This document shows, piece after piece, positions 6,551 to 36,310 of a stretch of 38,493 bases of DNA. Source of the DNA: an uncultured bacterium (lineage in GTDB: Bacteria; CAIJMQ01). The stretch spans positions 1 to 38,493 of the forward strand of contig CAZNJA010000009.1 of assembly GCA_964573245.1 (NCBI GenBank). The letters run 5' to 3'. Positions within the stretch are counted from its first letter, which is position 1, and each line of letters starts with the position of its first letter. The notes under the pieces are model-generated. The model saw only the letters and a program-made list of their open reading frames with translations, did not search any database and was not told the DNA's origin. Both the position numbers and the translations under genes were made by a program.

Positions 6551-7498
6551 TTATTGAGATTTGCCTATAAGATCGCTGGCAGAATTTATTTTGTTATGGA
6601 TGAGATAAGCTTCGATTTCTTTTAGGATTTGGAGTGAAGAATCGGGGGATACCAAACTTGCTGTTCCGATTGATACGGCTGACGCGCCTGCAAGCATAAA
6701 TTCAATTGCGTCTTTTCCCGCCATTATTCCTCCACAGCCGATTATTGGTATGCCTACGACTTTTGCTGCATCATAAACCATTTTCAACGCTATAGGTTTT
6801 ATCGCGGGGCCTGAAAGTCCACCTGTAATACCGCCCAAAAACGGTTTTCCCGTTTCCAAATCTATTGCCATTGCAGGTATTGTATTTATGAGCGAGACAA
6901 TATCGCAACCTGCTCTTTTACAGGCAAGCGCTATTTCGGTTATATCGTTTACTTGTGGTGTTAATTTGGCGATTATGTGGATGGATGTTGAGTTTTTAAC
7001 TTTTTTAATGATGTTGTAAGTTGCTCTGGAGTCCTGCCCGAAGAGCATTTTGTTTTTTAAATTGGGGCAAGAGAGATTAAGTTCAATCGCGTTTACACTC
7101 TTCCCGCCACCAAAACTTCGGCGGGCAAGTTCTTTATCTAAAATTTTTGCAAGTTCTGCAAACTCGTCTTCTGTTTTACCCGATATGCTTACGAAAAAAG
7201 GTATTTTTAATTTCTGTAAAAACGGAAGTTTTTCTCTGATAAATACTTTGATTCCCGGATTTTCAAGCCCTATGGAATTGATTATTCCGTTTTCTACTTC
7301 AGCGATTCGGGGCGGAGGATTGCCTTCTTTTGGATTTAAGGTTATGGTTTTGGTAGTGACAGCGCCGATTTTACTTAAATCTATAAATTTCGTTATCTCA
7401 TCTCCGAATCCACATGTCCCAGAGGCAAGAATAATCGGATTTTGAAGTTTTATGTTCCCCAATTTAACAGAAAGGTCCAGCTTCATATTTGGCTCCAA
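6551..7498 (-). CDS. pyrD: Dihydroorotate dehydrogenase B, catalytic subunit
   Basis: NPIILASGT, GNPPPRI, NSIGL.NPG, ELNLSCPN, GGLSGPAIKP; overlaps pyrK; carries a 9-aa insert. Confidence 0.96.
   Translation of the reverse strand: MEPNMKLDLSVKLGNIKLQNPIILASGTCGFGDEITKFIDLSKIGAVTTKTITLNPKEGNPPPRIAEVENGIINSIGLENPGIKVFIREKLPFLQKLKIPFFVSISGKTEDEFAELAKILDKELARRSFGGGKSVNAIELNLSCPNLKNKMLFGQDSRATYNIIKKVKNSTSIHIIAKLTPQVNDITEIALACKRAGCDIVSLINTIPAMAIDLETGKPFLGGITGGLSGPAIKPIALKMVYDAAKVVGIPIIGCGGIMAGKDAIEFMLAGASAVSIGTASLVSPDSSLQILKEIEAYLIHNKINSASDLIGKSQ
7103..7129 (-). repeat. 27-bp palindromic element inserted in frame in pyrD
   Basis: CCCGCC-accaaaacttc-GGCGGG-caag encodes LARRSFGGG; removal leaves DKE|KSVNAIEL. 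Confidence 0.75.
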
Positions 7499-8286
7499 TC
7501 TATTTCTTCTGCGTCAAAAACGGGTCCGTCCTTGCATACTTTTTTGTATCCTTGTTTTGTTTTCACAACGCAGGCGTTGCATATTCCTATCCCGCATCCC
7601 ATAAACTGTTCAAAAGAAACCTGGCAGGGAATTTTATATTTTTCAGATAAAAGAGCAACTTCTTTCAACATCCCTTTCGGACCGCAAGTATAGACGATGG
7701 ACGACGGACGATGCCCGCCTGCCAAATATTGTCGGGCAGGGACGATGGAAGACACTTTCTTTTTAAATAAGTCGCTGACGAGCCCTTTATAACCTAAACT
7801 ACCGTCCTCGGTGGCAATATGTATTTCTGCTCCCAATTTTTTGAGTTTATCAGCACAGAGAATTTCATCTTTTGTTTTCGCGCCTAAAAAAATTGTTATC
7901 GGTAATTTCGCTAATTTTTCAGCAAGAAAAAGTAACGGCACTATTCCTATCCCTCCTGCGACGAGTATCGCAGTTTTTGTATTCTTCAACTTAAATCCAT
8001 TCCCAAGCGGGCCTAAACAATCAAGTTTTTCTCCCTTTTTTCTTTGTGATAGCCAGTGTGTGCCTTTTCCAACAACCTTATACAAAATTTCTACGTATTT
8101 TTTGTCTATTACCTCGTGGATACTTAATGGTCTGCGCAATAAAGGGTTATTACTCGTAGAGCATCTTATATGTAGGAATTGTCCCGGAGATGATTTTTTT
8201 GCTATTTCTGGGGACTCAAGTTTCATAAAGAAATAATGAGAAAGAATTTCGGTATTGGCTATTATTGAAAATGCTTTCCTGAACAT
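7483..8286 (-). CDS. pyrK: Dihydroorotate dehydrogenase electron transfer subunit
   Basis: PGQF, LRRPLSI, GPLGNGF, AGGIG, CGP, MGCGIGICNAC...VCKDGPVF [2Fe-2S] motif. Confidence 0.95.
   Translation of the reverse strand: MFRKAFSIIANTEILSHYFFMKLESPEIAKKSSPGQFLHIRCSTSNNPLLRRPLSIHEVIDKKYVEILYKVVGKGTHWLSQRKKGEKLDCLGPLGNGFKLKNTKTAILVAGGIGIVPLLFLAEKLAKLPITIFLGAKTKDEILCADKLKKLGAEIHIATEDGSLGYKGLVSDLFKKKVSSIVPARQYLAGGHRPSSIVYTCGPKGMLKEVALLSEKYKIPCQVSFEQFMGCGIGICNACVVKTKQGYKKVCKDGPVFDAEEIDWSQI
7693..7754 (-). repeat. GACGATG heptamer tract interrupted by a 27-bp palindromic element, in frame in pyrK
   Basis: gacgatg gacgacg gacgatg [cccgcctgccaaatattgtcgggcagg 7714-7740] gacgatg gaagaca; encodes VSSIV-PARQYLAGG-HRPSSIV. 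Confidence 0.8.
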
Positions 8287-8387
8287 ATCAATTAAGGCTC
8301 AAATCATTTATAAATCAGAAGCGATTACATGTTTATAAATTTTCGCTTCGTATTCTATCATTAGAAACAAAGAAAAAATCCAAAATT

Positions 8388-8419
8388 CACCCCGCTGGAG
8401 TATAAACTCCAGCGGGGTG
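8388..8419 (-). terminator. Perfect 14-bp hairpin downstream of the prepilin-like gene pair
   Basis: caccccgctggagt-ataa-actccagcggggtg, followed on the minus strand by aattttggatttttt. Confidence 0.75.
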
Positions 8420-8448
8420 CTTAAAAATGTGAAGGCCATCGGAGATTC

Positions 8449-9369
8449 TCAGAAAGGAGAATAAAAGTAATCAAAGGCATTCGCCGGGATAGAATAGACA
8501 AAGCGATATTCTCCGTAAGTAGGAACTTCCCTTACCTTAAATCCCCAGTGATAATATCTCAAGTCGCCATGATCTACTATAGATGGCAATTGCACGTGAT
8601 TAATCCATTTTACCGCACCGTCTATAAACCAGACATTGCTTCCCTCGGTTTTGCCATGGTTAGAGTACCACATTCTGCGCGGTCCCTGGTTACCATCAGG
8701 GTTATCGTCAAAATCAAGCCAATAGAATCCACCCTGGCTTCTTAGAAAGTCATCGATGTTACGGCTTGGAATCGAAACCCCATTGGCTCTATCCATCATC
8801 ATTGCTATGGACTTTCCTCCTGTCTGGGTAGTAACTCTTTGTGAAATGCCTCGTGCTGTCGCGCTTGATTGAGCACACTGCACAGCATAGGACAAGTGAG
8901 GAACCGTGTTTGCGCTACCTGACGGGCAACGGTTTGTTGCAAAACATCTTTCCATCTCTTCAGTAACAAGGTAGTCGTTACCAGCGCCTATATTGTGTTT
9001 GGCTGGGTCCACCGGCACCGCTCTTGATATAGGGTCACTGGGACAGATAAATATGTTCCAATCTCTTGTATAGTCAGGATATAACTGTGCCAAAGTGGCT
9101 CCCGCTCTGGTTCGGGCGTCATTAAACAAATTACTGCGCGGATATGGAAACCATTCTCTGTTATCTCCTGTATACATATGCATTGCCAGACCAATATCTT
9201 TCAGATTTGCTGAACAGGTTGCTCTGCTTGCGAGTTCTTTTGCTCTTTGCAAAGACGGCAGTATAATCGCAGCCAAAATACCGATAATCGCTACTACCAC
9301 CAATAACTCGACAAGTGTAAAGCCAACCGAAAAATCATCCTTTTTTCTTCTGATTAACTTTTTCATCAT
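8449..9369 (-). CDS. Prepilin-type N-terminal cleavage/methylation protein, DUF1559-like with H-X9-DG-type tail
   Basis: [26 protein letters not shown]...[30 protein letters not shown]. Confidence 0.88.
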
Positions 9370-9451
9370 TCTTCATTCACCTCCTTTATCTGTAAGCATT
9401 GTTTAACAACTATACTTTAAGACCTCCACATTTTTTTATCAATTTCAATTT

Positions 9452-10150
9452 TTAGTTGTCGGGATTTAAGAAATAAGGGTCATCGAAACCTGGTATATCC
9501 CATTCATAGAGAATTGCAACAGGAAATCGCCCCTGAACTTTTCTGCTCTTAATCCATCTTACTGCTCCAGCAGCGTACAAAACATTTACGCCTGCAGTAG
9601 TATGATTAAGATTCCACATATCATTGTTGCTTGACCAAGTGAGGTTAAAATTATTGCATCCAGTATATACCTGGTCCCCTGTGCCTGTTCTGCCTCTCGT
9701 CATATCCATGGCTATTGCTGTATCTGCTCTAACCGCTTCATTCAAGCCCATATGATAGGCATAGTGACATCTAGAAACGCCTGTATTAATAAAAGTCGCA
9801 AGATCTTTGGCTGGCTCAGGTGCGATGGGATTACTCGGACAGATATAAATCTTAAAGCCTCTAATATATTCCGGGTATAGACGTGCAAAACTTCCCTTTA
9901 CTGTGCCCACAGCGGGGTCAATAGCAGAGTCTCCATTAACATCGCCCAATGGAAATTTTTCGTCATGCTCGCCGGCAAACAGATGAATTCCAAGACTAAT
10001 TTGCTTCAGGTTATTTTGGCAAACGGAACGTCTTGCGCTTTCTCTTGCTCTGGCTAGTGCGGGTAGAAGAATAGCAGCCAAAATACCTATTATAGCAATA
10101 ACAACCAACAGCTCTATCAATGTGAAACCCTTCCTATTCCTTTGCATCAT
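9452..10150 (-). CDS. Prepilin-type N-terminal cleavage/methylation protein, DUF1559-like
   Basis: [80 protein letters not shown]. Confidence 0.9.
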
Positions 10151-10229
10151 TTTTGTTTCCCTCCTCTTTTTTCGCTTATCCCCGGCAGGATAAGGTTTGA
10201 ATTTTTAAACTATTTTAACTTTTTTTAGG

Positions 10230-10258
10230 TTTATACCCCAATTATCTGCCTTTGTCAA
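10230..10258 (-). promoter_or_regulatory. Near-consensus sigma70 promoter of the prepilin-like pair
   Basis: Minus strand TTGACA (10258-10253), 17 nt, TATAAA (10235-10230). Confidence 0.7.
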
Positions 10259-10332
10259 GGTATTGTCAACCACACATTAGAGACTATATCTCATATTCAA
10301 CGATGGGCGGACCATTTCAATGGAGTCATCCC

Positions 10333-11772
10333 TTATAGAATTTCCAGTTTTTTTCTTATCAATTCGTTAACTACTTTGGGGTTAGCTTTGCCTTTCATGT
10401 TTTTCATTACTTGTCCTACAAGAAAGCCGAGCGTTTCCGTTTTGCCTTTTTTAAAATCGTCCACAGCGCCTTTATTTTCTCCAAGCACTTTATCCACCGC
10501 TTTTGATATTTCTTCCTCATCCGTTACCTGAGTAAGCCCCTTTTCTTTTATTATTTCTTCGGGCGATTTTCCCTGTTCTATAATTTGGGGGAATATATTC
10601 TTTGCGATATTTTGGTTGATAATGTCTTTGTTCACATAAGTGGTCAATTCAACTAATTTTTCGGGAGTAATCTTGGTCTTACTTATAGTCGTATTATGTT
10701 CGTTTAAATATCTCATAATAGGACCTATAATCCAGTTGACAATTTCTTTGGGTGAAATGCTCTCTTCCGATTTTAAACATTCTTCAAAAAAATCCGCCGT
10801 TTCTTTGTCCGATATGATTATATTTGAATCGTATTCATCTAAACCGTATTTGGTTATGAACTTTTCTTTGCGCATACTTGGAAGCTCAGGCAATTCCTTT
10901 TTTACTTTCTGTATTTCTTCGTCTGAAATAAAAAGCGCGGGCAAATCCGGTTCGGGGAAATATCTGTAATCGTGCGCTTCTTCTTTGCTGCGCATTGAGC
11001 GTGTTATTTGCTCTTTTCCGTCCCATAATCTTGTTTCTTGTGAAACCTTTTCGCCTTTTTTCAGCATTTCCGTTTGTCTTTTTATTTCATAGCGGATAGA
11101 CGAAAGGACAATTTTAAAGGAATTTAAGTTTTTTATTTCAACTCTGGGTGGCAGATGCGTTTGTCCTTTTTCTCTTACGGAAATATTCGCTTCAAACCTC
11201 AAAGAACCTTCCTGCATCTTGCAATCGGAAATTTCTATATATAGCAATATATCCCTCAAAGTATTCATAAATATTTCTACTTCTTCGGGGCTCCTCATAT
11301 CTGGTTTTGTTACGATTTCCACAAGCGGTATGCCTGTGCGGTTAAGGTCTACCAACGAGCCCTTGCCATTTTCAAGATGTATGTTCTTACCCGCATCCTC
11401 TTCAAGATGAATATTGTCCATTCCGACTTTATTAGGAATATCTTTAGTTTTAATTTCAAGAAATCCGTCTTGGGCAAAAGGCAGATATTGTTGCGAAATC
11501 TGATAGTTTTTGGGAAGGTCGGGATAGTAATAATTTTTTCTGTCGAATATCGTCTGCTGGTTGATTGTGCAGTTTAGTACTAAAGCAGTTCTAATCATAT
11601 ATTCAACAGCTTTAGCATTTACTACAGGAAGCACGCCGGGAAGCCCCATACATACAGGACAGACTTGTGAGTTTGGCGATGCTCCGAATTTAGTGGAACA
11701 TCCGCAAAAAAGTTTTGTTTCGGTTGCCAATTCAGCGTGGATTTCTAATCCTATTACTGGTTCGTATGTCAT
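10333..11772 (-). CDS. gatB: Asp/Glu-tRNA amidotransferase subunit B
   Basis: VIGLEIHAEL, FDRKNYYYPDLPK, HLEEDAGK, EIKNLNS, RSKEEAHDYRYFPEPDL, GKANP. Confidence 0.98.
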   Translation of the reverse strand: MTYEPVIGLEIHAELATETKLFCGCSTKFGASPNSQVCPVCMGLPGVLPVVNAKAVEYMIRTALVLNCTINQQTIFDRKNYYYPDLPKNYQISQQYLPFAQDGFLEIKTKDIPNKVGMDNIHLEEDAGKNIHLENGKGSLVDLNRTGIPLVEIVTKPDMRSPEEVEIFMNTLRDILLYIEISDCKMQEGSLRFEANISVREKGQTHLPPRVEIKNLNSFKIVLSSIRYEIKRQTEMLKKGEKVSQETRLWDGKEQITRSMRSKEEAHDYRYFPEPDLPALFISDEEIQKVKKELPELPSMRKEKFITKYGLDEYDSNIIISDKETADFFEECLKSEESISPKEIVNWIIGPIMRYLNEHNTTISKTKITPEKLVELTTYVNKDIINQNIAKNIFPQIIEQGKSPEEIIKEKGLTQVTDEEEISKAVDKVLGENKGAVDDFKKGKTETLGFLVGQVMKNMKGKANPKVVNELIRKKLEIL

Positions 11773-11792
11773 ATAAAAATCTAAAAACTCCT

Positions 11793-11863
11793 GATTCTAG
11801 ATGCTCAATTTTGGATTCTCGTTAATAAAATTTAATTCTTTGTTTCTACTAGTATCAAGTATC
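11793..11863. repeat. Heptamer-arm inverted element, family C (GATRCTR / YAGYATC), between gatA and gatB
   Basis: gattcta gatgctc ... gattctc, loop gttaataaaatttaattctttgtttctac, then tagtatc aagtatc; arms and loop resemble 37828-37914. Confidence 0.6.
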
Positions 11864-11878
11864 GGTTTATTTTTCACT

Positions 11879-13366
11879 TTATATTATGGGTTTCTTCATA
11901 TGGTATTCCGTATTCTGTTCAAATGTGAAAGCGGTCTGTAAAATTTTCCCTTCATCAAAAGGTTTTCCGATAATTTGAAGACCTATCGGCAGTTTATCGG
12001 AGGAAAACCCGCAAGGTATAGAGATAGCAGGAAGTCCGGCCAAGTTTACGGGAATCGTGAATATATCAGAAAGATACATCTTTAATGGGTCGGAAACTTT
12101 CTCCCCTATTTTGAAAGCAGGCGTCGGAGAAACAGGCGTGACAATTACATCGCATTTTTTGAACACCTCATCAAAATCATTTTTTATCAGCGTTCTGACC
12201 TTTAGAGCTTTTAGGTAATATGCTTCATAATAGCCCGAAGACAAGGCATAAGTTCCAAGCATTATTCTTCTTTTTACCTCTTCGCCGAAACCCTCGTCTC
12301 GTGTTTTCTCGTACATATCAACGATTGAACTCACTTTGCTGTCTTCCGTCTTCTGCTTGCTGTTTGCTGTTCTATGTCCATAATGAACTCCGTCGTATCG
12401 CGCAAGGTTAGAGCTGGCTTCTGCAGGCGCAATAATATAATACGTTGCAACTGCATATTCTGTATGAGGTAAGGAAACCTCTACAATTTCGGCGCCCAAT
12501 TTCTTGAAAGTTTCTATAGCGTTTAAAATTGCTTTTTCGACTTCTTTATCCATCCCTTCGACAAAATATTCCTTAGGAATTCCTATTTTTAATTTTTTGG
12601 CATTGTTTATTAAATGCTTTGTATAATCCGGCACACTTTCACCAACAGAAGTAGAATCCATCGGGTCATGTCCTGCTATTACATTTAGAAGAATAGCTGT
12701 ATCTTGGACATCTTTTGTAAATGTGCCAATCTGGTCTAGGGAAGATGCAAATGCCACAAGCCCATATCGCGATACTCTTCCATAAGTGGGTTTTAATCCT
12801 ACGACTCCGCACATGCTTGCCGGCTGACGGATAGAGCCGCCCGTATCCGACCCCAATGACATAATTGCAAAATCGGCCGCCACACAAGCTGCAGAACCGC
12901 CCGAAGAACCGCCGGGTATAACCGAAAAGTCCCACGGATTTCTACATACTCCATAAGCAGAATTTTCGGTTGAAGAACCCATAGCGAATTCGTCCATGTT
13001 GGTTTTACCCAAAATTATGACATTCGCTTTTTTGAATTTTTCTGTAACTGTTGCGTCATAAATAGGGATATAATTTGATAGTATTTTTGAACCGCAAGTG
13101 GTTTTTATATTTCTTGTCGAGATAAGATCTTTTATTGCAATTGGAATGCCTGATAATGCTCCTATTTTTTCACCTTCACTTATTTTTTTGTCCACTTTTT
13201 CGGCTTCCTGCAAAGCCGACTCTTTGGTAAGAGTAATATAAGAATTTATATTTTTATCTAATTTTTCTATGCGCTCATAAATATTTTTTGCAATTTCAAG
13301 CGAAGAAGTTTTCTTCTCCACAAGCAGTTTATTTAATTCGTGAGCGGTTAATTCGTATAATTCCAT
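11879..13366 (-). CDS. gatA: Asp/Glu-tRNA amidotransferase subunit A
   Basis: [46 protein letters not shown]; start set at the ATG (MELYEL) rather than the TTG at 13372. Confidence 0.98.
12339..12373 (-). repeat. Degenerate heptamer tract in frame in gatA
   Basis: ctgtctt ccgtctt ctgcttg ctgtttg ctgttct; encodes [12 protein letters not shown]. Confidence 0.6.
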
Positions 13367-13378
13367 GTTCAATCCCTT

Positions 13379-14124
13379 AAATCAAAAATTAAAAATCAAA
13401 TATCAAAAATACATATCAAAATGCAAAAAGAAATAAATCCGAATTATTTATTAGACCTTGCTTTCCGTTCTTGAATACTTTTTAATAAATAAGGCGCAGC
13501 TTCTTCGTAGGTTTTACCTGATTTTATGCTGTTACAAACAAGGCAGCTTGTTTTCAGGTTGTCTTTTGTATGCTTTCCTTCTTTGCTTTGGGGTATCAAG
13601 TGGTCAAGTGTTGCGTTTTGGAAAGTTACTTTTTCACCGCAATAAAAACAGGTCCATTTATCTCTTTCAAAAATTTCTTTTCTTTTTTCTTCATCAGTAA
13701 AATAATTTTCCTCTTTCGGATCTTGAGTAATTGAAAGTTTTTCTTTTACTAAAGGAATTTCCTCCGGAAGAAAAACAATATATAGTGTTCCGTCGCGGTT
13801 AATATCGCCAACTTTAATGCAGCTTTTTTCTTCAAGTCCCTTAACCAATTTCGTAACATGGGCGTAATTCGTTTTTTCACCACGAGAACCTTTGCCGTAA
13901 TTTTCTGCAATAGTCCTTTTGCCAATTCGGATTTTAGGAGAATTATTTTTTATATGCGAATTGCGCAAAAAGAAAATATAAAGCGATGCCTCGTAGGGAG
14001 TAAGTTCGGGTACCAAAAAATCTACATATTGCTCAATTATAGCTTTTATATCTTTTGACATATTAGTTTCTTAATTTTGATTTTTGATTTGTCATTTTGC
14101 ATTTTAATTTTTGATTTTTACATT
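13379..14124 (-). mobile_element. Family A heptamer-arm element carrying an HNH gene, between gatC and gatA
   Basis: Arm 13379-13428 and arm 14073-14124 match the empty copies at 35281-35424 and 5705-5884; mobility is inferred. Confidence 0.6.
13444..14061 (-). CDS. HNH endonuclease with a probable N-terminal winged-HTH domain
   Basis: IFERDKWTCFYCG, DHLIPQSKEGKHTKDNLKTSCLVCNSIK (CxxC...DH...N...CxxCN); N-terminal half LTPYEASLY..L...IA...V...L.EK..I looks wHTH-like. Confidence 0.88.
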   Translation of the reverse strand: MSKDIKAIIEQYVDFLVPELTPYEASLYIFFLRNSHIKNNSPKIRIGKRTIAENYGKGSRGEKTNYAHVTKLVKGLEEKSCIKVGDINRDGTLYIVFLPEEIPLVKEKLSITQDPKEENYFTDEEKRKEIFERDKWTCFYCGEKVTFQNATLDHLIPQSKEGKHTKDNLKTSCLVCNSIKSGKTYEEAAPYLLKSIQERKARSNK

Positions 14125-14131
14125 TATTACT

Positions 14132-14425: not shown

Positions 14426-14459
14426 TTTTTTATCTAAAATCCTATCTTTTTCTTTTTTA

Positions 14460-15632: not shown

Positions 15633-15642
15633 ATTAGTTTTC

Positions 15643-15793
15643 AATAACCAAGATACAAGAAGCAATAACCAAACAATACCCAAATCCCAAGTTCCAATAA
15701 ACAAATCCTTGTTTCTTTTGCTTATATTTGTTTGGTGATTGATTATTGGTCATTGGTAATTATTTGTATCTTGTTTCTTGGTGTTTGGTTATT
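15643..15793. repeat. Heptamer-arm inverted element, family B, between pilT and the aminotransferase gene
   Basis: Arm 15643-15705 (aataacc aagatac aagaagc aataacc...) is roughly complementary to arm 15727-15793 (...ttgtatc ttgtttc ttggtgt ttggtta). Confidence 0.75.
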
Positions 15794-15798
15794 CATTC

Positions 15799-23559: not shown

Positions 23560-24330
23560 TTATTCTTCTATTTTTTCCATTATTTCATCAGGAATATCAA
23601 AATTAGCATAGACATTTTGAACATCGTCGTGTTCTTCTAATGCTTCTACAAGTTGTAACATCTTTTCCGCGGATTTTGCGTCCGTAATGGGAATGGGGTT
23701 TTCGGGCAACATCTCAATTTTTGCCGAAGATATATGGATATTTTCATTCTTAAGAGCTTCCTTAACAGCGTTTAAATCTTCTACCTTTGCAATCAATGCG
23801 CACTCTTCATTTTCCACCCTGAAATCTTCTGCTCCCGTGTTTATGGTAAGTTCCATTAATTCTTCTTCGCTAAATTTCTCTTTCTTTTCTAGGGTCCTAA
23901 AGATAGAGATTGTTGCTACACCTTTCTTCTTAAAAAACCTAGCCGCAGAACCCGGAGATGCGAGATTACCGCCAAATTTTGAAAATATATGTTTCATTTC
24001 AGAAGAAGTCCGGTTTTTATTGTCGGTTATTCCTTCTATAAAAAAAGCTACTCCACCGGGGCCATATGCTTCATAACTACATTGCTCCAAAATAACACCA
24101 GGCAATTCCCCCGTACCTTTTTTTATTGCGCGGGTTATGTTATCTTGCGGCATGTTGACTTCCCTTGCCGCATCCACCGCCGTTCTTAACACGGAATTCA
24201 TGCTGATATCGCCGCCGCTACGCGCAGCGATCGTAATCTGTTTGCCTATACGGCTGAAAACTTTTCCTCTTGCCGCGTCTGCCTTTCCCTTTTTGTGTTT
24301 TATACTTGCCCAATGACTGTGTCCTGACAT
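23560..24330 (-). CDS. yebC: YebC/PmpR family protein
   Basis: MSGHSHWASIKHKKG..DA.RGK.F, YEAYGPGG, TDNKNRT, LEEHDDVQNVYAN. Confidence 0.96.
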   Translation of the reverse strand: MSGHSHWASIKHKKGKADAARGKVFSRIGKQITIAARSGGDISMNSVLRTAVDAAREVNMPQDNITRAIKKGTGELPGVILEQCSYEAYGPGGVAFFIEGITDNKNRTSSEMKHIFSKFGGNLASPGSAARFFKKKGVATISIFRTLEKKEKFSEEELMELTINTGAEDFRVENEECALIAKVEDLNAVKEALKNENIHISSAKIEMLPENPIPITDAKSAEKMLQLVEALEEHDDVQNVYANFDIPDEIMEKIEE

Positions 24331-24416
24331 GTTTTATTCCTCCATTTACGAAATTTGTGTTTTATACTTGCCCAATGACTGTGTCCTGACATGTTTTATT
24401 CCTCCATTTACGAAAT
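24292..24416. repeat. Perfect 62-bp tandem duplication covering the yebC RBS, start codon and first 13 codons
   Basis: 24292-24354 is identical to 24354-24416. Confidence 0.95.
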
Positions 24417-27921: not shown

Positions 27922-28850
27922 GAATACTAATAACTGGCGGAGCTGGGTTCATCGGCTCGCATTTATGCGAGAGACTCATCAAAAAGGGTCATGAAGTTAT
28001 CTGCATGGACAGTTTATTAACTGGGGCCAAAACAAATATCAAAGAATTATTATCTATGCCGAATTTTAAATTCATAGAGCATAATGTAAGCGAATACGTT
28101 GAATTTAAACAAGATTTGGATTATATATTGCACTTTGCATCCCCCGCTTCGCCCACAGATTACCTTAAATATCCAATACAAACCTTAAAAGTCGGTGCTT
28201 TGGGAACGCACAATACTCTGGGGCTCGCAAAAGAGAAAAAAGCGAAATTCTTACTGGCTTCCACTTCCGAAGTATACGGCGACCCGCAAGTAAATCCGCA
28301 ACCGGAAGAATACTGGGGCAATGTAAACTGCATAAGTCCAAGGGGTGTCTATGACGAGGCAAAAAGATTTGCCGAAGCAATGACCATGGCTTATCACAAA
28401 TACCATAAATTAGATACAAGAATAATACGGATTTTCAACACCTATGGACCTAAAATGCGAATTAACGACGGCAGAGCAGTTCCCGCTTTTATAAGTCAGG
28501 CCTTAAAAGAAAAGCCCTTAACCGTATTCGGAGACGGCTCTCAAACAAGAAGTTTCTGTTATATAAACGATCTATCAGATGGCATCTTAAAACTTATAGA
28601 TTCTTCAGTCCACGAACCTGTTAATCTGGGAAATCCCGATGAGTTTACAATATTGGAATTGGCCAAAAAGATAATAAAGCTAACCAAAAGCAAAAGTAAA
28701 ATAGCATTTGAAGCGCTCCCTGCAGACGACCCAAAGGTGAGAAGACCTGACATTTCAAAAGCAAAAAAATTACTTGATTGGCAGCCAAAGGTAGGAATTG
28801 ACGAAGGACTTATAAAGACAATTGATTATTTTAAGGAAAAGACATTCTAA
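27918..28850 (+). CDS. UDP-glucuronate decarboxylase-like NAD-dependent epimerase/dehydratase
   Basis: [58 protein letters not shown]. Confidence 0.92.
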
Positions 28851-28913
28851 CCTTCCACAATATTTAATTATTAATAATTTAAGAGAATTAACATTCATTA
28901 GGAATTGGGAATT

Positions 28914-29939
28914 TTATTTAAAAATCTCTTCTTCCTCAAGGACAATATGCCTTATTTCTTCCTTTTCCACAGAATAAATTATGTGGATTTTGCCATTTGA
29001 GTCTTGAGCCATCGAAGGATAACCAAAATCCGTGTTTTTTTCTTCTTCTAAAATTCTCCTTATAGGAAAACTTTTCCCGCCATCCTGCGACAACGCTATA
29101 GTAAGATTATCACGCTCATCCTGATTATCATTAAAAATCAAAGCTATTTTTCCAGAAGCAAGTTTTAATAAGTCAAACCCAGCGCCCGGATTTTGCAAAT
29201 CTTCTCGTTTGACCGCTTCATGCCATATTTTTCCATTATCGTCAGAAAAGGATTGCCAGAAATAGCCGCCTTTTTCAGGTCGCATGAGCATAAAAAACTT
29301 GTCATCCGACAGAGGGACAATAGCAGGCTGAAGATTCCCTGGACTCGTCTTAATAAGAGCGGAATGGTGAATTATTTTTTCTTTGTCGAATTTGCACACA
29401 TAAGAATAATAACCGCTGAACTCCTTGTATAACGGTAAAAGAAATTCTTTGTCATTCAAAATTATGGGTTTGCTTCTTGCCAAATCCCCCATCCTATAAA
29501 AGGGAAAAACCTTCTTGGGAGATGTCCATGAGAATTTGGTTCCGTTTAATTTTGATTTGACATAAGAAAGCCGAGCCGTACTCCAGCCACTTCCCCAAAG
29601 ATAGGAATAAAAACAATAAATTTCATCGCCAAATAAAAAAACAACAGGATTGCCATCTGCCCTATTAGAAGTATCTACAAGCATTTCAGGTTCACTCCAC
29701 TTTCCTGTTTCAACTGTCTTGAAACTAAAAACAATGGCAGTGTCTTTGCTTTTCTCTTTACTGCCAGAACTCCATGCTACCAAAAGAGTCCCGTCAGGAA
29801 GTTGTAATATATTGGGAGAATGATTAAAAACCCTGTCGCCCGGAATAGGCAGTGTTTCCTTTCCCATGCATATACCGATTACCGGATGGAACATCAAAAG
29901 AATAAACAAAAAAGTGCAGATTATTATGTTTTTGTGCAT
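28914..29939 (-). CDS. Exported BNR/Asp-box sialidase-fold protein
   Basis: Signal peptide, LPDGTLLVAW..GSKE, Asp boxes SDDNGKIW and SQDGGKSF, YP...Q...G.IHIIYS. Confidence 0.85.
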   Translation of the reverse strand: MHKNIIICTFLFILLMFHPVIGICMGKETLPIPGDRVFNHSPNILQLPDGTLLVAWSSGSKEKSKDTAIVFSFKTVETGKWSEPEMLVDTSNRADGNPVVFLFGDEIYCFYSYLWGSGWSTARLSYVKSKLNGTKFSWTSPKKVFPFYRMGDLARSKPIILNDKEFLLPLYKEFSGYYSYVCKFDKEKIIHHSALIKTSPGNLQPAIVPLSDDKFFMLMRPEKGGYFWQSFSDDNGKIWHEAVKREDLQNPGAGFDLLKLASGKIALIFNDNQDERDNLTIALSQDGGKSFPIRRILEEEKNTDFGYPSMAQDSNGKIHIIYSVEKEEIRHIVLEEEEIFK

Positions 29940-29954
29940 TATAAAAACGATTAT

Positions 29955-31316
29955 TTACAAGTTAGAATAAAGAGAGGACAAATTCACTTTAAACCCTTCG
30001 GCAGCAAGTTGCGCCAAAACATTAAGAATCTGGCTTGTATCAGTCGCTGTTTTTATATTTGAAGCAATCGCAATATAATCCTTCTCGCCAAGGATTTGTT
30101 TCACAAGGTTCATCAAAACATTCCCGGGCCCTATTTCTATAAAGACTCTAGCTCCATCCTTAAACATATTTTCTACTTCTTCGGTAAACTTCACAGAACT
30201 TACAAGATGCTCGCTTAAAATAGATAAAATTTCTTTTTTGTCTTTTGGATATTTCAAAGCTGTAACATTGGAATAAACCGGCATTAAATAGTTCTTATAA
30301 TCCAAATCAGATAATTTTTTAAACAGCAACTCTTTCGCAGGAGTCATATACGGCGAATGGAAAGCACAACTCACATTTATTTTTTTGGACATCAATCTTT
30401 TTTCTTTAAGTTTGGCGCTTACTACATCAAGAGATTTTTCGTCACCTGCAAGAATTGTCTGTTTGGGAGAATTTAAATTGGCAATGTATACCCTATCTAA
30501 ATCTTTGATAACGCTCTCTATTTCTTTCGCACCCGCGCCAACAGCAAGCATTTTACCCGGATTGCCGTTTTTAGCAGAACTCATAATTGCAGAACCCCTA
30601 TACTCCAAAAGTTCATAAAGTGTTTCTTCTTCGAAAACACCTGCCGCGCATAAGGCAACATATTCGCCTAAACTGTGTCCTGCAAACATATCCGGATTTA
30701 CACCGAATAACTTCATAATCTTGAATAAACCGATTTCCACGACGCCAAGCGCGGGTTGAGTAATATTGGTTATAGTCAACTCTTGCATTTGCTGTTTTTC
30801 TTGTTCGGGAGTAGATGCGGAAGGCGGATATATATATTCGCTCAATAATTTAGGGAAACGGTTTTTAAGGACATTGTCTGCTTTTTGGATGCTTTCGCTC
30901 ATCTCTGGGAAAAAACTTTTTAAATCTTTTAGCATACTAGGTCTTTGCGAAGCCTGGCCAGAGAAAAGAAAAACGATTTTGCCGTTTTCTGTTAAACCGT
31001 GAGAAGAAAAGTAGATGCCTTTGATATCTCGCAAAGACTTAGGACTATCTTTAAGCAAATCTTTGGCAGAAGTAATTCTGGACTTGAGTTCGTCTACCGA
31101 TTCGGCTACTACAGCAAGTTCACAAGAATTAGATTTATGTTCGCGGTTTTCTGAATAGAGCGAAAAAGCTAATTCGGGCAAGTCTAATCCGCCATTCGCC
31201 GCGATAGAGTTTTCTACAGTTTCAAGCTGTTTGACAATAATTTCAATGTTTTCGCCCGTCCAGAAAAACAACTGTTCTTTTATTTTTCTTGCCAAACAAT
31301 TTTGTGGAATTTTCAT
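29955..31316 (-). CDS. Stand-alone type I PKS/PUFA-synthase-like acyltransferase (KS-AT linker plus AT domain)
   Basis: VFLFSGQASQ, TQPALG, GHSLGEY, N.NSP.Q, CAFHS, FIEIGPG; no KS or ACP domain. Confidence 0.85.
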   Translation of the reverse strand: MKIPQNCLARKIKEQLFFWTGENIEIIVKQLETVENSIAANGGLDLPELAFSLYSENREHKSNSCELAVVAESVDELKSRITSAKDLLKDSPKSLRDIKGIYFSSHGLTENGKIVFLFSGQASQRPSMLKDLKSFFPEMSESIQKADNVLKNRFPKLLSEYIYPPSASTPEQEKQQMQELTITNITQPALGVVEIGLFKIMKLFGVNPDMFAGHSLGEYVALCAAGVFEEETLYELLEYRGSAIMSSAKNGNPGKMLAVGAGAKEIESVIKDLDRVYIANLNSPKQTILAGDEKSLDVVSAKLKEKRLMSKKINVSCAFHSPYMTPAKELLFKKLSDLDYKNYLMPVYSNVTALKYPKDKKEILSILSEHLVSSVKFTEEVENMFKDGARVFIEIGPGNVLMNLVKQILGEKDYIAIASNIKTATDTSQILNVLAQLAAEGFKVNLSSLYSNL

Positions 31317-31484
31317 GCAATTCTAATATAGAAAACAAGGTATCAAGATTTCAGGTTACCTTTTAACAATACCTTAATGCTATTTTTACTGCGGTAATTA
31401 TATCATACGTAGTTTTTATACTGGAATGATTTCGAAAACGATAGACAAAGTAAACCCTAAACAAAAAGGATAAGAAATCTATTA

Positions 31485-31545
31485 TTTTGTCCGCCTTAAA
31501 AGGCGGACAAAAAAGAACCCCCGCCACTGAATCAATGGCGGGGGT
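31485..31545 (-). terminator. Tandem hairpins downstream of the porin gene
   Basis: acccccgccactga-a-tcaatggcgggggt (31517-31545, T tract follows on minus strand) and ttttgtccgcct-taaa-aggcggacaaaa (31485-31512). Confidence 0.8.
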
Positions 31546-31561
31546 ATATTCTTCGTTGTTA

Positions 31562-33034
31562 TTAGAATGTAACCTTTACTGAACCCATCAACTGTTGTGC
31601 ATTGTCAAGGCTATAATCTAACCCAGCAGTATCATCTGCACCCTCTTCGAAGAACTTGCCAGGGATGAACAGAGCATACATAAGTCCGAATGTTACATCT
31701 TCACTATAGTTATAAGTGAAATTGACGTCATATTCAGAACCTACGTAATTGCTTTGGTCATCTATGTCATCGAGATCCCCGCTTGCCAAAAAGGTCCATG
31801 ACCAAACTGATTTAGGAGCTGTTATACTATAGAAAGTAAGGTCAAGTGCTGTGGCTTCCGTAGGATTGACACCTGCAGCAAGTTTCCAGATACTGGCATT
31901 GGTCATCAATGTATCGCCAGGCCCAGCCCAATATTGCAGCCCGTAGATTACTTCGGCAATTTCACCGTATGTTTCATCCTCAAACAGAGGGTTGAATGTC
32001 TGTACTGGGTCATTGTCATAGTCATCACCGCTCATATAGATGTAACCCAAGCCGAAATAAGGAGCATAGACGTTATCAAAGGTGTATTCACCTTCAATAT
32101 AGCCAGCCCATGCATCCAATCTTTCTGGATCGCCAGTAATAATTGTTCCTGGAGTGGTGAATGCTTCAACCGTACCCCATTCTTTTACTATCTCACCTTT
32201 TAATGCTAAGGTGCCAACATCAATCTGGGGAATAGTGCCTTCACCTCGGATGCTTAAAGCCCAAGTCTGGGTTTCGTCATCGACACCGGGTGTATTGAAT
32301 CTGTTGTAGAACAAACCAAAATCCCACAGACCATACATTCCGCCGTCATAGTTCCAGTTAAGTCCATAGAGGTCATTATCAATATCTACAGGTTGCAGAC
32401 CATTGGTCCAAGGAGCCCAAACTGTGCCACCGCCAACAGGAGCAACATTGGAACCTTCGACTATCTTGGCAATGAACAGGTCTATTTGATGCGGCTCATA
32501 GTCCCATACTGCCTTGATAGCATCAAAGGCTTTTCGTGAATCATATTGATAAGTGTTTTCTGAAACTCGGACTCCATCTCCGACCAAGAACCCTTCTCCG
32601 TAGAGAAGTTCCTGCCTACCGATTGTCAAACTGAACGGATATCCGTACATTTCTGCCAATGTCAAATAGGCAAGGTCAATATCAATATCATCTACGTTAG
32701 AAGCTGGGTCATAATTCATATCCCAATCTCTTTCGTTGATTACTCTTACCATAGCACTAACGTTGTCAGTCAAAGATGCTTCGACATACAAACGAGTGAT
32801 GGTCATGAGATAATCATGCGCGATATTGTCCGTTACTGCACCAAATCCATTGTTGTCGTAAACAGTAACATTGTTCAACTCTATTTCATCGATGATATCA
32901 TAGGCGCGTTGATAGATACCCTTAATTTCGATATCTCCGCCTACTTTTACATTCTGCACTGCAGCTGAAGCGCTGAAAGATAACCCCAGCACTAAAGCCA
33001 AAGCGCACACTGCTGTTAGTAATTTATGTGTCAT
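31562..33034 (-). CDS. Outer-membrane beta-barrel, alginate-export-like porin
   Basis: Signal peptide, NVKVGG, LTDNV, IDLAY, GRQEL.YG.GFL.G, FDAI, terminal VKVTF; family call from motif recall. Confidence 0.72.
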   Translation of the reverse strand: MTHKLLTAVCALALVLGLSFSASAAVQNVKVGGDIEIKGIYQRAYDIIDEIELNNVTVYDNNGFGAVTDNIAHDYLMTITRLYVEASLTDNVSAMVRVINERDWDMNYDPASNVDDIDIDLAYLTLAEMYGYPFSLTIGRQELLYGEGFLVGDGVRVSENTYQYDSRKAFDAIKAVWDYEPHQIDLFIAKIVEGSNVAPVGGGTVWAPWTNGLQPVDIDNDLYGLNWNYDGGMYGLWDFGLFYNRFNTPGVDDETQTWALSIRGEGTIPQIDVGTLALKGEIVKEWGTVEAFTTPGTIITGDPERLDAWAGYIEGEYTFDNVYAPYFGLGYIYMSGDDYDNDPVQTFNPLFEDETYGEIAEVIYGLQYWAGPGDTLMTNASIWKLAAGVNPTEATALDLTFYSITAPKSVWSWTFLASGDLDDIDDQSNYVGSEYDVNFTYNYSEDVTFGLMYALFIPGKFFEEGADDTAGLDYSLDNAQQLMGSVKVTF

Positions 33035-33297
33035 CTTTTTTTCTCTCCTTCCCTTCGTTACTAAAGAGAGTTATGCCTCTCTCGACATAACGTCGAGAAT
33101 TGTTTCCCTTCTTCTGTATCTATGTTTCTCCGACGTAACGTCGGAGCTTTCTATCTATCCTTCACCCCTTATAGGCATCCTTAGCGGCTTAATTTCTTTT
33201 TCACCCCCTTTCTTGCCTGAATTTAAGGTGCCAGGGATGTTAACTCACAATTCCATTTCCCCATGCCTAAATACAAGTTTCCAAATGAAGTTGTGCG

Positions 33298-33327
33298 AAT
33301 ATACCATACACTTCTATTAAATGTCAA
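33298..33327 (-). promoter_or_regulatory. Putative sigma70 promoter of the porin gene, implying a 5' leader of about 255 nt
   Basis: TTGACA (33327-33322), 18 nt, TATATT preceded by TGg. Confidence 0.6.
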
Positions 33328-33496
33328 GGGTAAAAACACTTTTTTCGGAGAAAATTTTTCTGTAAAAATTTAAGATATTAATTTGTTATCTATAAGAGTG
33401 TGGCAATATAAAATTAGATTGTTTCACCCGTTTTACTTCCTTCACAATAATGATATAAAGCAATCTTTGCCACTACCTTCAATATCTGCTTACTCT

Positions 33497-33997
33497 CTAC
33501 TTGCTGTTTTTTCCGGAAGTTTGATACCATTTCATCAACCCTCCAGCATTGATTATTTCCTGCAAAAGCGGAGGGAACGGTTGAGTATGGAAGTTTTTAT
33601 TTTGAGTTATATTTGTAATGTCCCCTTTTAACAAATCAACTTCTAAGTTATCGCCCGGATTTGCATTTTTATAAATTTCACCTGATGTAATAATCGGAAG
33701 CCCAACATTTATACAGTTTCTGTAAAATATTCTGGCGAAAGACTCGGCAATGACCAAAGGAACCCCACAACCCAAAATAGCCAAAGGCGCATGTTCTCTG
33801 GAAGAACCACATCCAAAATTTTTCCCTGCGACGATAATATCGCCTTTTTGCACTTTGCTTGAAAAAGATGAGTCAATCCCATCCATGCAATGTGTCCCCA
33901 ATTCTTTCATATCCGTTGTAACAAGATACGGCGCGGGGATAATTTCGTCGGTATTTATATTATCGCCGAATTTGTGAATTTTGCCTTCAATAATCAT
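33497..33997 (-). CDS. leuD: 3-isopropylmalate dehydratase small subunit (LeuD/HacB type)
   Basis: FGDNINTDEIIP, GKNFGCGSSREHA, SFARIFYRN..N.GLP. Confidence 0.92.
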   Translation of the reverse strand: MIIEGKIHKFGDNINTDEIIPAPYLVTTDMKELGTHCMDGIDSSFSSKVQKGDIIVAGKNFGCGSSREHAPLAILGCGVPLVIAESFARIFYRNCINVGLPIITSGEIYKNANPGDNLEVDLLKGDITNITQNKNFHTQPFPPLLQEIINAGGLMKWYQTSGKNSK

Positions 33998-33999
33998 TT

Positions 34000-35274
34000 C
34001 TACATTACCTCTTCGGGATGCGCTATTCTTCCTTTTACAGCTGACGCCGCCGCTACGGCAGGAGAAGCCAAATAAACTTCGCTTTCTTTATCTCCCATTC
34101 TGCCTACAAAATTGCGGTTTGTAGTTGCAACGCATTTTTCGCCTTTCGCCAAAACGCCCATGTGCCCTCCGATACAAGGTCCGCAAGTCGGAGGAGAAAC
34201 AACCGCTCCGGCGTTGATAAATATTTCCATAAGCCCTTCTTTCAGTGCTTGAAGATATATTTTTTGCGTTGCAGGGATAATAATTGCTCTCGTGTTCGTA
34301 TGGATTTTTTTACCTTTTAAAATCTCGGCGGCAACTTGCAAATCTTCCAATCGCCCATTCGTGCATGAACCTATAACAACCTGGTCGATACCAATGTCGC
34401 CAGCTTCGGAAACGGGTTTTGTGTTAGACGGAAGATGTGGAAACGCGACCTGTGGCTGGATTTTAGTGATATCGTATTCCTTAACATCTGTATATTCAGC
34501 ATCTTTATCACTCTCGTATACTCGGTTATCGGTTATCGGTTTGCGGTTATCGGTTTTAATATTTTTGATATACTTAAGCGTCACTTCATCGGGAGCTATT
34601 ATTCCGCTCTTCCCGCCGGCTTCTATAGCCATATTGCACATGGTAAGGCGCGCATCAACTGAAAGAGCGCTTATCGCTTCGCCCGTAAATTCCATAGCTT
34701 TATAATCGGCACCGCCAACGCCTATATCGCCGATAGTGTAAAGAATCAAATCTTTTGAGGTAACCCATTTATTTAACTTTCCACGATAAATAAACTTTAT
34801 GCTTTCGGGAACCTTCAGCCATATTTTCCCGGATAGCATCGCAAAAGCAAGGTCCGTGCTACCTACTCCCGTTGCGAATGCTCCCAACGCGCCGTAACTG
34901 CAAGTATGCGAATCTGCTCCAATAATAAGTTGTCCGGGAATAATAAAGCCTTCTTCGGGCAAAAGTGCGTGCTCTATTCCGCCACAACCCAATTCGAAGA
35001 AATTTTTCACGTTATACTGTTTAGCGAAATTTTTCACTTTCAGGCATTGGTTCGCGGATTCTTTGTCTTTATTTGGAGTAAAATGGTCAGCAACCAATAC
35101 AACTTTTTCAGGATACGGGATAGATTTTCTGCCTAATTTTTCCACTTCTTCAATAGCTAACGGCGCGGTTATATCGTTGCCGAGCGCAATATCCACATCG
35201 GCAAGAATAAATTCTCCCGCTTCTACTTTTTCTTTCCCGCAATGGGAAGCCAATATTTTTTCAGTTATAGTCAT
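34000..35274 (-). CDS. leuC: 3-isopropylmalate dehydratase large subunit (LeuC/HacA type)
   Basis: MTITEKIL, GADSHTC, CNMAIEAG, IGSCTNGR, CGPCIG, TTNRNFVGRMG. Confidence 0.93.
   Translation of the reverse strand: MTITEKILASHCGKEKVEAGEFILADVDIALGNDITAPLAIEEVEKLGRKSIPYPEKVVLVADHFTPNKDKESANQCLKVKNFAKQYNVKNFFELGCGGIEHALLPEEGFIIPGQLIIGADSHTCSYGALGAFATGVGSTDLAFAMLSGKIWLKVPESIKFIYRGKLNKWVTSKDLILYTIGDIGVGGADYKAMEFTGEAISALSVDARLTMCNMAIEAGGKSGIIAPDEVTLKYIKNIKTDNRKPITDNRVYESDKDAEYTDVKEYDITKIQPQVAFPHLPSNTKPVSEAGDIGIDQVVIGSCTNGRLEDLQVAAEILKGKKIHTNTRAIIIPATQKIYLQALKEGLMEIFINAGAVVSPPTCGPCIGGHMGVLAKGEKCVATTNRNFVGRMGDKESEVYLASPAVAAASAVKGRIAHPEEVM
34523..34557 (-). repeat. Five-unit CGGTTAT heptamer tract in frame in leuC
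   Basis: cggttat cggttat cggtttg cggttat cggtttt; encodes KTDNRKPITDNR. Confidence 0.85.
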
Positions 35275-35280
35275 ATATTT

Positions 35281-35424
35281 AAATTAAATATTAAAAATCA
35301 AATATCAAAAATACATATGAAAATGTAAAATCGGCAAAGCCATTCATATTTTTTACATTACCTTTTTGTTCCTTTTTGAATTTTGATTTGTAATTTTGCA
35401 TTTTACATTTTGATTTTTGATTTT
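35281..35424 (-). repeat. Heptamer-arm inverted element, family A, empty copy between nadK and leuC
   Basis: Shares ttaaaaatcaaatatcaaaaatacatat exactly with the arm at 13389-13416, and ttttgatttgt.attttgcatttta with the arm at 14082-14106. Confidence 0.85.
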
Positions 35425-35428
35425 ATTA

Positions 35429-36310
35429 TTATTTCTCCACCGAACTACCGCTCCATTTCAGTTTTTTTCTCAAAAGCTCGTAGAAATTTTCCCGCCTGCT
35501 GTGAAGCGGACAGGTCTTTTTCAATCTAATAAGGGATGCCGTAAATGGAGCCAAACGCACTTCTATCTCGTCGCCTTTTTTAAGTTTGCCGCCGATTTGG
35601 CCGTCAATTGTATAATCAACAGCGCTTTCAGCCAACATTTTCACTTTTATTTTACTGTGACTGGGAACAACAATGGGCCTGTTGGACAAAGTATGAGGAC
35701 AAATAGGAACAATCAAAATGCAGTCCATAGAAGGATGGACTATCGGGCCTCCCGAAGAAAGAGAATGCGCAGTCGAGCCGGTAGAAGTAGAGATAATCAA
35801 TCCGTCGGATGCAAAAGTCGTCAGATAACTGCCGTCTATATATGTTTTTAGTTCCACGATTCTTGCGGAAGCGCCTCTTGAAAGAACAACATCGTTAAGC
35901 GCAAATAGCTGCTCTTTACAACTGCGAACACTAATAGTCAGCATATTTCTTTTTTCTACGCAGTATTTTTTACTGAACAGGGCAGGTAACGCTTTGTTTA
36001 AATTTTTGTAAGTTATTTCAGTAAGAAAACCCAAACTGCCCATATTCACGCCAAGTATCGGTATGTTTTTATCCTTTACCATTCTTGCGGCTTTAAGAAG
36101 TGTTCCGTCCCCACCCAGACTTATCAAGAGTTGAGCATTTTTCCTTATTTTTTCTTCACCTGCTTTCAATTCTTTCCTTCGAAAAAATTTGGCGGCATCT
36201 TCAAGAAGAAAAACACTTACATTTTTCCTCTCCAAATTGCGAATAAGTTCTTGCATTATATTGGGGACTTTTCCTTTAGCCAAATTGGCGATTACAGCCA
36301 CTCTTTGCAT
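35429..36310 (-). CDS. nadK: NAD kinase
   Basis: GGDGTLL, GVN.G.LGFL, ALND, DGLIISTSTGSTAHSLS.GGP, PICPH, DGQ. Confidence 0.95.
   Translation of the reverse strand: MQRVAVIANLAKGKVPNIMQELIRNLERKNVSVFLLEDAAKFFRRKELKAGEEKIRKNAQLLISLGGDGTLLKAARMVKDKNIPILGVNMGSLGFLTEITYKNLNKALPALFSKKYCVEKRNMLTISVRSCKEQLFALNDVVLSRGASARIVELKTYIDGSYLTTFASDGLIISTSTGSTAHSLSSGGPIVHPSMDCILIVPICPHTLSNRPIVVPSHSKIKVKMLAESAVDYTIDGQIGGKLKKGDEIEVRLAPFTASLIRLKKTCPLHSRRENFYELLRKKLKWSGSSVEK
35491..35514 (-). repeat. 24-bp palindromic element in frame in nadK
   Basis: cccgcctgctgtgaagcggacagg has the same termini as the pyrD and pyrK inserts; removal gives LKKKNFYELL. Confidence 0.75.

Follow-up and report, generated by a model that had tools for sequence, protein, structure and literature searches.

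A family of very small, probably mobile hairpin repeats lying in frame within pyrD, pyrK and nadK of an uncultured bacterium

The SDR4–6 repeats of Nostoc punctiforme (Elhai et al., 2008, Genome Res 18:1484) are reportedly hairpins of 21–27 nt with mobile behaviour, found nested within each other and within tandem heptamer arrays, with no transposase known for them and no duplication of the target. Yeast mitochondria carry GC clusters and ‘byp’ elements, GC-rich mini-hairpins that spread in an AT-rich genome, coding regions included; the byps are organellar, break the reading frame and are bypassed by the ribosome. Elements of a size like that of the Nostoc repeats are described here from a 38,493-nt contig of an uncultured bacterium (CAZNJA010000009.1 of assembly GCA_964573245.1, positions 1–38,493; this whole stretch of DNA is referred to as the window), in which three copies lie within the genes pyrD, pyrK and nadK. 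The three sites are probably copies of a very small, non-autonomous, dispersed mobile hairpin, which would be copied at the DNA level by an activity acting in trans and whose frame-breaking copies would be purged from genes.

Several better documented families share some of these properties. Repetitive extragenic palindromic (REP) sequences of the GTAG and CGTC super-families, to which RPE-4 and RPE-6 of Rickettsia belong, are palindromes of 20–40 bp with GC-rich stems and many copies (Di Nocera et al., 2013; PMC3733652); these REPs are ‘mostly intergenic’, and some lie in frame inside known genes, where they are judged to be neutral loop insertions. The REP/REPIN sequences associated with REP-associated tyrosine transposases (RAYTs) are short non-autonomous hairpins presumed to be mobilized in trans (Bertels and Rainey, 2011; PMC3116915). 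Classical Rickettsia palindromic elements (RPEs) of the RPE-1 type are palindromes of about 150 bp that have entered metabolic genes of unrelated function without breaking the frame; almost half of the copies lie in open reading frames (ORFs), and their insertion is considered compatible with the protein fold (Ogata et al., 2000, as summarized in PMC10969869).

The inserts in pyrD, pyrK and nadK

The window corresponds to contig C9 of a fragmented metagenome-assembled genome (MAG) of 1,456,377 bases in 110 contigs with 38.4 % G+C (G000). All three copies read 5' to 3' on the forward strand and all three host genes lie on the reverse strand. The 27-nt copy in frame in pyrD (7103–7129) has a B-type loop and reads CCCGCC-ACCAAAACTTCGG-CGGGCAAG, CGGGCAAG being its 3' arm. 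The 27-nt copy in frame in pyrK (7714–7740) is of the A type (CCCGCC-TGCCAAATATTGT-CGGGCAGG) and has two identical copies elsewhere in the genome, at C5:26219 and C12:19941. The 24-nt copy in nadK (35491–35514), in phase 1, is of the C type, with a tetraloop-like centre and a mutated 3' arm (CCCGCC-TGCTGTGAAG-CGGACAGG). The peptides encoded are LARRSFGGG, PARQYLAGG and TCPLHSRR, respectively. An earlier note made from the sequence alone had listed these sequences, coordinates, lengths and peptides, all of which read as it had given them, and its observation is confirmed: the sites belong to a real dispersed family of the form CCCGCC-N(7–24)-CGGGCAGG.

The genes pyrD (6551–7498), for the catalytic subunit of dihydroorotate dehydrogenase 1B (NCBIfam NF005574, 373 bits against a cut-off of 269), and pyrK (7483–8286), for the electron-transfer subunit of dihydroorotate dehydrogenase B (best match NF000798, 209 bits, just below the cut-off of 219), adjoin each other. 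The nadK gene (35429–36310) encodes an NAD kinase, with NF002306 as its best NCBIfam family (E 3e-78; 263 bits, below the curated cut-off of 316).

Orthologues of the three enzymes were fetched from 40 other genomes and 29 were aligned per gene, among them those of three genomes of the same genus (69–83 % amino-acid identity). The added residues were missing in 29 out of 29 orthologues for each of PyrD, PyrK and NadK, one NadK orthologue having a single extra residue at the insert site. Deletion of exactly 24 or 27 bases gave back the orthologous codons, so that pyrD read DKE|K as in its relatives and nadK read AAA AAG A|AA AAT TTC, that is KKKNF (KKK|NF). This exact restoration indicates that the boundaries drawn in the earlier note are right and that there is no target-site duplication; none was detected in the codon-level excisions, nor in a comparison of gap lengths between G000 and a sister genome (G001). 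Clean insertion of a dispersed family, as the note had inferred, is thereby borne out.

As single-stranded DNA, the window copies form 6-bp stems in one of two registers, either CCCGCC/GGCGGG, which leaves CAGG as a 3' tail, or CCTGCC/GGCAGG, which leaves CCCG as a 5' tail. The pyrD copy adopts the first (−6.3 kcal/mol) and the pyrK copy the second (−5.7 kcal/mol); the hairpin of the nadK copy is weak (−3.3 kcal/mol, z −0.84) and not better than those of shuffled sequences.

AlphaFold2 models were obtained for two of the three proteins. The NadK model (20-sequence alignment; mean predicted local distance difference test score, pLDDT, 87.5) fell below 50 at residues 266–274, which are the insert itself and form a loop between the last strand and the C-terminal helix. 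In the PyrD model (17 sequences, mean pLDDT 84.6), the insert extends the helix at 110–130 and is placed at a surface helix end, before the strand leading to the SCPN active-site loop; the block holding the insert scored 74, compared with 94 in the preceding block. Both predicted placements would be compatible with tolerated surface insertions, and the NadK loop and PyrD helix end accord with the earlier suggestion that the element creates new protein loops. Other lineage-specific in-frame inserts, which resemble other repeat families, were met in the same genes of relatives: PyrK of G001 (locus L008) possesses a peptide of about 25 residues (…LRNSMEFQGPKSRKSFRFLGGKP) twice, whilst PyrD of G002, another genome of the genus, has a 25-residue insert with terminal ISNG (L064) and its NadK an 18-residue insert (L035).

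The pyrD and pyrK sites were spanned by Logan contigs of four public runs (X1–X4) with no differences, joints or indels, the pyrD copy by contigs of all four and the pyrK copy by those of X1 and X4. This rules out faulty assembly of the MAG as the source of the inserts.

Copy number, reading frame and distribution

The regular expression of the earlier note matched 46 times on both strands of G000, compared with 0–1 times per genome in 30 simulations (ten each at Markov orders 1, 3 and 5). Within ORFs of at least 150 amino acids there were 21 matches, and 50 codon-order shuffles gave none in 47 cases and one in three. The genome-wide scan and the codon-preserving shuffle had both been named in the note, and the counts far exceed those of the shuffles. 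A looser scan, with up to one mismatch in the 14 positions of the arms and spacers of 7–24, gave 93 hits in G000 (1–5 in each of five simulations), and these were merged into 72 loci. The elements are 24, 27 or 33 nt long, with additional 25- and 26-nt forms between genes, and have the termini 5'-CCCGCC ... CGGGCAGG-3' with variable centres. The main recurring forms were a 27-mer with the loop AAATCTT or its inverse, a 27-mer with a ACTAAAGATTC-like centre and a 24-mer with a GCGA-like tetraloop.

Genomes of the genus have about 70–80 loci each. Thirty-seven of the 72 loci in G000 lay in ORFs of at least 150 amino acids, corresponding to 29.8 loci per Mb there and 162.5 per Mb elsewhere (5.5-fold higher outside). 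Intergenic copies had no orientation bias relative to flanking genes, and some of them were situated 6–25 nt past stop codons. No bias of element orientation with respect to replication was found on a 593-kb contig of G001, where GC skew tracks gene strand and gives no usable replication direction.

The same census was applied to G001, of which almost all was fetched (1.447 Mb, 13 contigs, 92 % complete), and gave 79 loci. Lengths that are multiples of three accounted for 39 of 45 coding copies in G001, compared with 13 of 30 intergenic copies (Fisher p = 1e-4). The contrast extended to forms differing by one loop base: all 12 of the 24-mers were coding and none intergenic, whereas among 17 25-mers one was coding, 15 were intergenic and one was ambiguous. 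This represents a clean natural read-out of purifying selection on frame. G000 followed the same trend (28 of 33 coding and 20 of 30 intergenic copies, p = 0.14). As delimited by the scan, 67 of the 78 coding copies of the two genomes together were multiples of three; in most of the exceptions the 5' end had been mis-set by a few bases, as exemplified by a ‘26-nt’ copy on C30 that corresponds to a gap of nine residues. The proposal that survivors in coding DNA are frame-preserving is thus upheld as a depletion of other lengths, strong in G001 and a trend only in G000.

Among 65 coding copies of G000 and G001 with a length divisible by three, every one of the six frames was in use (antisense 17, 5 and 15; sense 14, 5 and 9), and the peptides had a high content of Ala, Gly, Pro and Arg. 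The consensus has no stop codon in any of the six frames, which also holds for 38 of 72 loci in G000 and 53 of 79 in G001. The common orientation relative to the coding strand that the earlier note had remarked on is a property of the three window copies and not a rule, since coding copies genome-wide occur in both orientations and in three phases of each.

Coding copies of each genome were then compared with the orthologous positions in the other. Twenty-five of the 33 tested G000 copies were spanned by G001 sequence, giving 15 clean gaps, three shared elements and seven sites with other residues; six of the remainder had no homologue and two were not spanned. Reciprocally, 36 of the 45 tested G001 copies were spanned, with 26 gaps, six shared elements and four sites with other residues (two without homologue, seven not spanned). 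Element length equalled gap length in 24 of the 41 clean gaps. Most of the remaining gaps exceeded the element by 18–33 nt, the entire nested or composite unit being absent, and no small surplus recurred. On sequence comparison, most coding copies are shown to be lineage-specific insertions relative to orthologues.

At the shared sites, the picture is not one of simple descent. On C44 (C44:8415), a 33-mer is identical to its G001 counterpart at 32 of 33 positions and the flanking codons have diverged. Different variants are borne by G000 and G001 at one position on C22, and on C42 the loop of one outer hairpin, common to both species, holds a 27-mer in one and a 24-mer in the other, slightly displaced from each other. 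The shared site on C79 has a second tandem copy in G001.

Matches to the regular expression were also found at other sites in the three other genomes of the genus (42 in G001, 46 in G002 and 14 in G003). Outside the genus there were none in the family's other genus, and three and eight in two genomes of another family of the class; a control pattern gave no matches in any of these genomes. The phylum-level scan covered nine genomes, the phylum having nine species in the collection searched. In the set analysed, the family was present in G000–G003, G006, G007 and G010 and absent from G004, G005 and G008. One genome outside the phylum (G010) had nine clear copies, eight of them outside long open frames; here too, other palindromes hold the copies in their loops. 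The stem CCCGCCTGC...GCGGGCAGG, with various loops, was matched 88 times in 82 IMG/VR stretches classed as viral (G+C 0.40–0.73), a raw count given without a chance expectation that hints at a widespread stem. Several of its loop variants recur on different IMG/VR contigs.

Target sites, mobilization and alternative explanations

Copies were shown to lie preferentially in the loops of other hairpins, those of their own family included, and in tandem runs of 7-base units. Self-nested copies occur, for example, at C11:5124, C59:3280, C70:3307, C27:10290, C31:14643 and C43:8627. Five nested pairs had been fused by locus merging into loci of 36–37 nt, and after this merging a further 3' arm within 22 nt was found at four of 72 loci in G000 and three of 79 in G001, compared with 1.5 % of random sites. 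An outer hairpin CCCCCACACC...GGTGTGGGGG occurred four times with an identical or almost identical inner 27-mer (C2:22473, C24:14641, C77:4230 and C17:4750); two of these four composites lie in genes, and there the whole composite is missing from G001. Flanks pairing over at least 7 nt were found for 21 % of 34 intergenic copies, compared with 6 % of random intergenic sites, and for 8 % of 36 coding copies, compared with 3 % of random sites. Another outer hairpin family is built on CCCGTTAGAAAT / ATTTCTAACGGGG (C42:9490), and a motif TTCTAACGGGGCAAG recurs on C1, C47, C48 and C92.

The heptamer context is exemplified by the pyrK copy, which is hosted by a run of GACGATG-like units at 7693–7754, with three units before it and two after (Tandem Repeats Finder, TRF, row 7693–7711; direct repeat of 9). 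In the three relatives from the same genus, these pyrK codons hold five units of another heptamer and no hairpin; the next genus has no such run. The units are CTGTCAT-like in the relatives (L002, L004 and L008), compared with CCATCGT-like in G000. Protein length there equals that of distant orthologues, and the run therefore seems to have replaced ordinary sequence instead of adding to it. Genome-wide, lag-7 periodicity across the junction exceeded the random 95th percentile at 16 of 70 G000 and 10 of 79 G001 loci, with about 3.5 and 4 expected. The association was weaker when scored as TRF heptamer arrays (at least 2.4 copies) adjoining loci (3 of 37 coding, 6 of 35 other), the lag-7 test being the clearer of the two. 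Arrays of at least 3.5 copies were strongly over-represented at period 7 (73 in G000 and 121 in G001); period 6 gave 17 and 7 such arrays, and period 8 gave six in each genome.

Thirteen of the 73 period-7 arrays of G000 are in ORFs of at least 150 amino acids. Further heptamer runs of the window are at 5853–5882, 13379–13429, 14075–14119, 34522–34555 and 35374–35424; that at 34522–34555 is (TCGGTTA)x4.9 within a 424-amino-acid ORF (34000–35274), and that at 35374–35424 lies immediately 3' of nadK. A perfect 62-nt tandem duplication (2.0 copies, 100 % match) at 24292–24416 includes a minus-strand start-codon region.

A mobilizing enzyme was sought in G000–G004 and G010, all of which are incomplete MAGs (81–96 % complete). 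The only Pfam Y1_Tnp match in G000 was weak and fell on the N-terminus of a 436-amino-acid predicted membrane protein without the His-hydrophobic-His (HUH) motif, which scored 33 bits against the NCBIfam cut-off of 80 for REP-associated tyrosine transposases. This protein is encoded at C12:23859–25169 (locus L139, 1429–2739); its gene contains an in-frame family copy (LPATVSMAG), its C-terminal domain resembles a 202-amino-acid ORF directly upstream, and G003 has a 446-amino-acid open frame with a similarly weak Y1 match. Y1_Tnp matches were absent from G001 and numbered four in G002, three of them with HUH and Tyr motifs, two in G003 and seven in G010. No family copy was present within about 1.5–2 kb of ten Y1 loci in G000, G002, G003 and G010, the nearest being 3.2 kb away in G002, and the RAYT-type partner flanked by the motif that the earlier note had suggested was not found at these loci. 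TnpB, IS110 and reverse transcriptase (RVT_1) were not found in the incomplete MAGs G000, G001, G002 and G004.

The reading judged probable above would have three steps. An activity working in trans would recognize the hairpin and copy the element as DNA, acting on single-stranded or extruded loop DNA; selection would then purge frame-breaking copies from genes; and tolerated copies would be translated as surface loops rich in Ala, Gly, Pro and Arg. The miniature non-autonomous element proposed in the earlier note is supported, each testable part of that proposal having held save the shared orientation and the RAYT partner. Several points weigh against this reading. No mobilizing enzyme was found, in genomes that are all incomplete. 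The hairpins have short stems of 6 bp and low stability (−3.3 to −7.2 kcal/mol), and that of the nadK copy fails to beat shuffles. The test for multiples of three is non-significant in G000 alone, and coding status was assigned by our own ORF heuristic (longest non-overlapping ORFs) with no gene finder. No filled/empty polymorphism within the population was seen in assembled contigs, which drop rare variants, and translation of the inserts is something we infer from the sequence.

The alternative that survives best dispenses with a dedicated transposase and has the family spread, or its copies replaced, by template switching at hairpins or by gene conversion via the shared arms. The searches gave no transposase family; at shared sites, as at C44:8415, conservation of the element exceeds that of its flanks; and variants differ at the same site between G000 and G001. 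The loops occur in both orientations between the same arms, the copy at the C79 site has been doubled in tandem in G001, and the family is associated with slippage-prone heptamer runs. Conversion would, however, cover replacement only and not first arrival at plain sites such as those in pyrD and nadK, which have no flanking homology, and occurrence in another phylum (G010) requires the transfer of something. This explanation is regarded as rather unlikely on the whole; a trans-acting, hairpin-specific enzyme working on single-stranded DNA, whether HUH/Y1-like or other, is given a slight preference over copying through replication or repair.

More doubtful still is that this is an ordinary REP family whose RAYT (Y1/HUH) transposase is merely missing from incomplete MAGs. 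The size, the GC-rich imperfect hairpin, the asymmetric ends and the lack of a target duplication are all REP-like, G002 (three of four), G003 and G010 possess Y1_Tnp genes that have HUH and Tyr motifs, and REPtrons, which are RAYT genes flanked by copies of their repeat, have been lost from some genomes (PMC3733652). Against this, the elements bear neither a GTAG nor a CGTC tag, and about half of the copies lie within genes. Nor do the Y1 genes fit: all ten loci are without a nearby copy, G001 has its 79 loci and no Y1 match at 92 % completeness, and the one Y1-like domain of G000 lacks HUH and falls below its cut-off.

It is highly improbable that the motif arose in place as a functional site under selection, be it a protein motif, an RNA structure or a DNA site for protein binding. 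Conservation is good among elements at shared sites, and some intergenic copies closely follow stop codons, but the 29 orthologues of each enzyme do without the element, unrelated peptides are produced from both orientations and six frames, intergenic copies are not oriented relative to flanking genes, the copies are not followed by a T-run, and no Rfam 15 family reached its gathering score anywhere in the window. That the inserts come from faulty assembly or binning is next to inconceivable: the MAG is fragmented and some X2 contigs break at the element, but independent contigs of four runs bridge the sites without differences, every coding copy keeps the frame, and three further genomes of the genus carry the family at different sites.

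A broader picture can be put forward only tentatively. The hairpins, heptamer runs and outer hairpins may together form a layered micro-repeat system that crosses phyla, to judge by G010 and by the contigs of varied G+C content, is copied without an element-encoded or element-linked transposase, targets single-stranded loops and keeps its copies fresh by re-insertion or conversion, continually rewriting the surface loops of essential enzymes in streamlined uncultured bacteria.

The family is among the smallest DNA units that behave as mobile, with about half of its copies in working genes of a 1.5-Mb genome, and it shows selfish or slippage-prone DNA adding loops to essential enzymes (PyrD, PyrK and NadK). 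Such repeats complicate annotation and orthologue alignment of candidate-phylum MAGs. They also pose a mechanistic puzzle, in that a 24-nt hairpin is apparently copied without a recognizable transposase and yet its insertions differ between species of one genus, that the same element is found in another phylum and that resident copies are remarkably well conserved.

Comparison with known repeat systems

Among the papers listed, none tied Omnitrophota to palindromic repeats of this kind, and the arm 10-mers were not found in the literature searched as a bacterial repeat, the matches listed being primers or eukaryotic sequences. Miniature inverted-repeat transposable elements, defined by terminal inverted repeats, a target duplication and a length of 70–300 bp, were ruled out, since the elements are 24–33 nt long, leave no duplication and can be deleted so as to regain the orthologous codons. 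The yeast mitochondrial byps differ in their relation to the reading frame: with 67 of 78 coding copies of G000 and G001 being multiples of three, read-through suffices, unlike the case of the byps.

The GTAG and CGTC REPs resemble the present family in being short GC-rich stem-loops with many copies (here 24–33 nt, 72 loci and 6-bp stems) and one asymmetric end. They differ in sequence, the G000 elements ending in CCCG and CAGG (CCCGCC.../...CGGGCAGG, CCTG on the other strand) with no GTAG or CGTC apparent in flank position frequencies, and also in that the G000 family is about 50 % intragenic, frequently self-nested and without a REPtron that could be found. The REP/REPIN-RAYT systems share the short non-autonomous hairpin and the presumed mobilization in trans, whereas the G000 family has no linked RAYT in the genomes searched, forms no inverted doublets and is not predominantly extragenic. 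In-frame palindromic insertion in metabolic genes is a feature that the RPEs and the G000 family have in common; the RPEs are about 150 bp long and encode a conserved peptide, whereas elements of 24–33 nt use six frames here.

The behaviour of the G000 family appears closest to that of the Nostoc repeats, a likeness drawn from their reported description and not from sequence. Size, self-nesting and heptamer context are seen in both, as is the lack of a target duplication and of a transposase that could be found, the features of the Nostoc repeats being reported ones. The differences are that the latter belong to another phylum and that about half of the copies in G000 are in frame inside housekeeping genes, which is not known of the Nostoc repeats. 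Elements of this kind are known, and are unusually pervasive in the present lineage; the sequence family described here is new.

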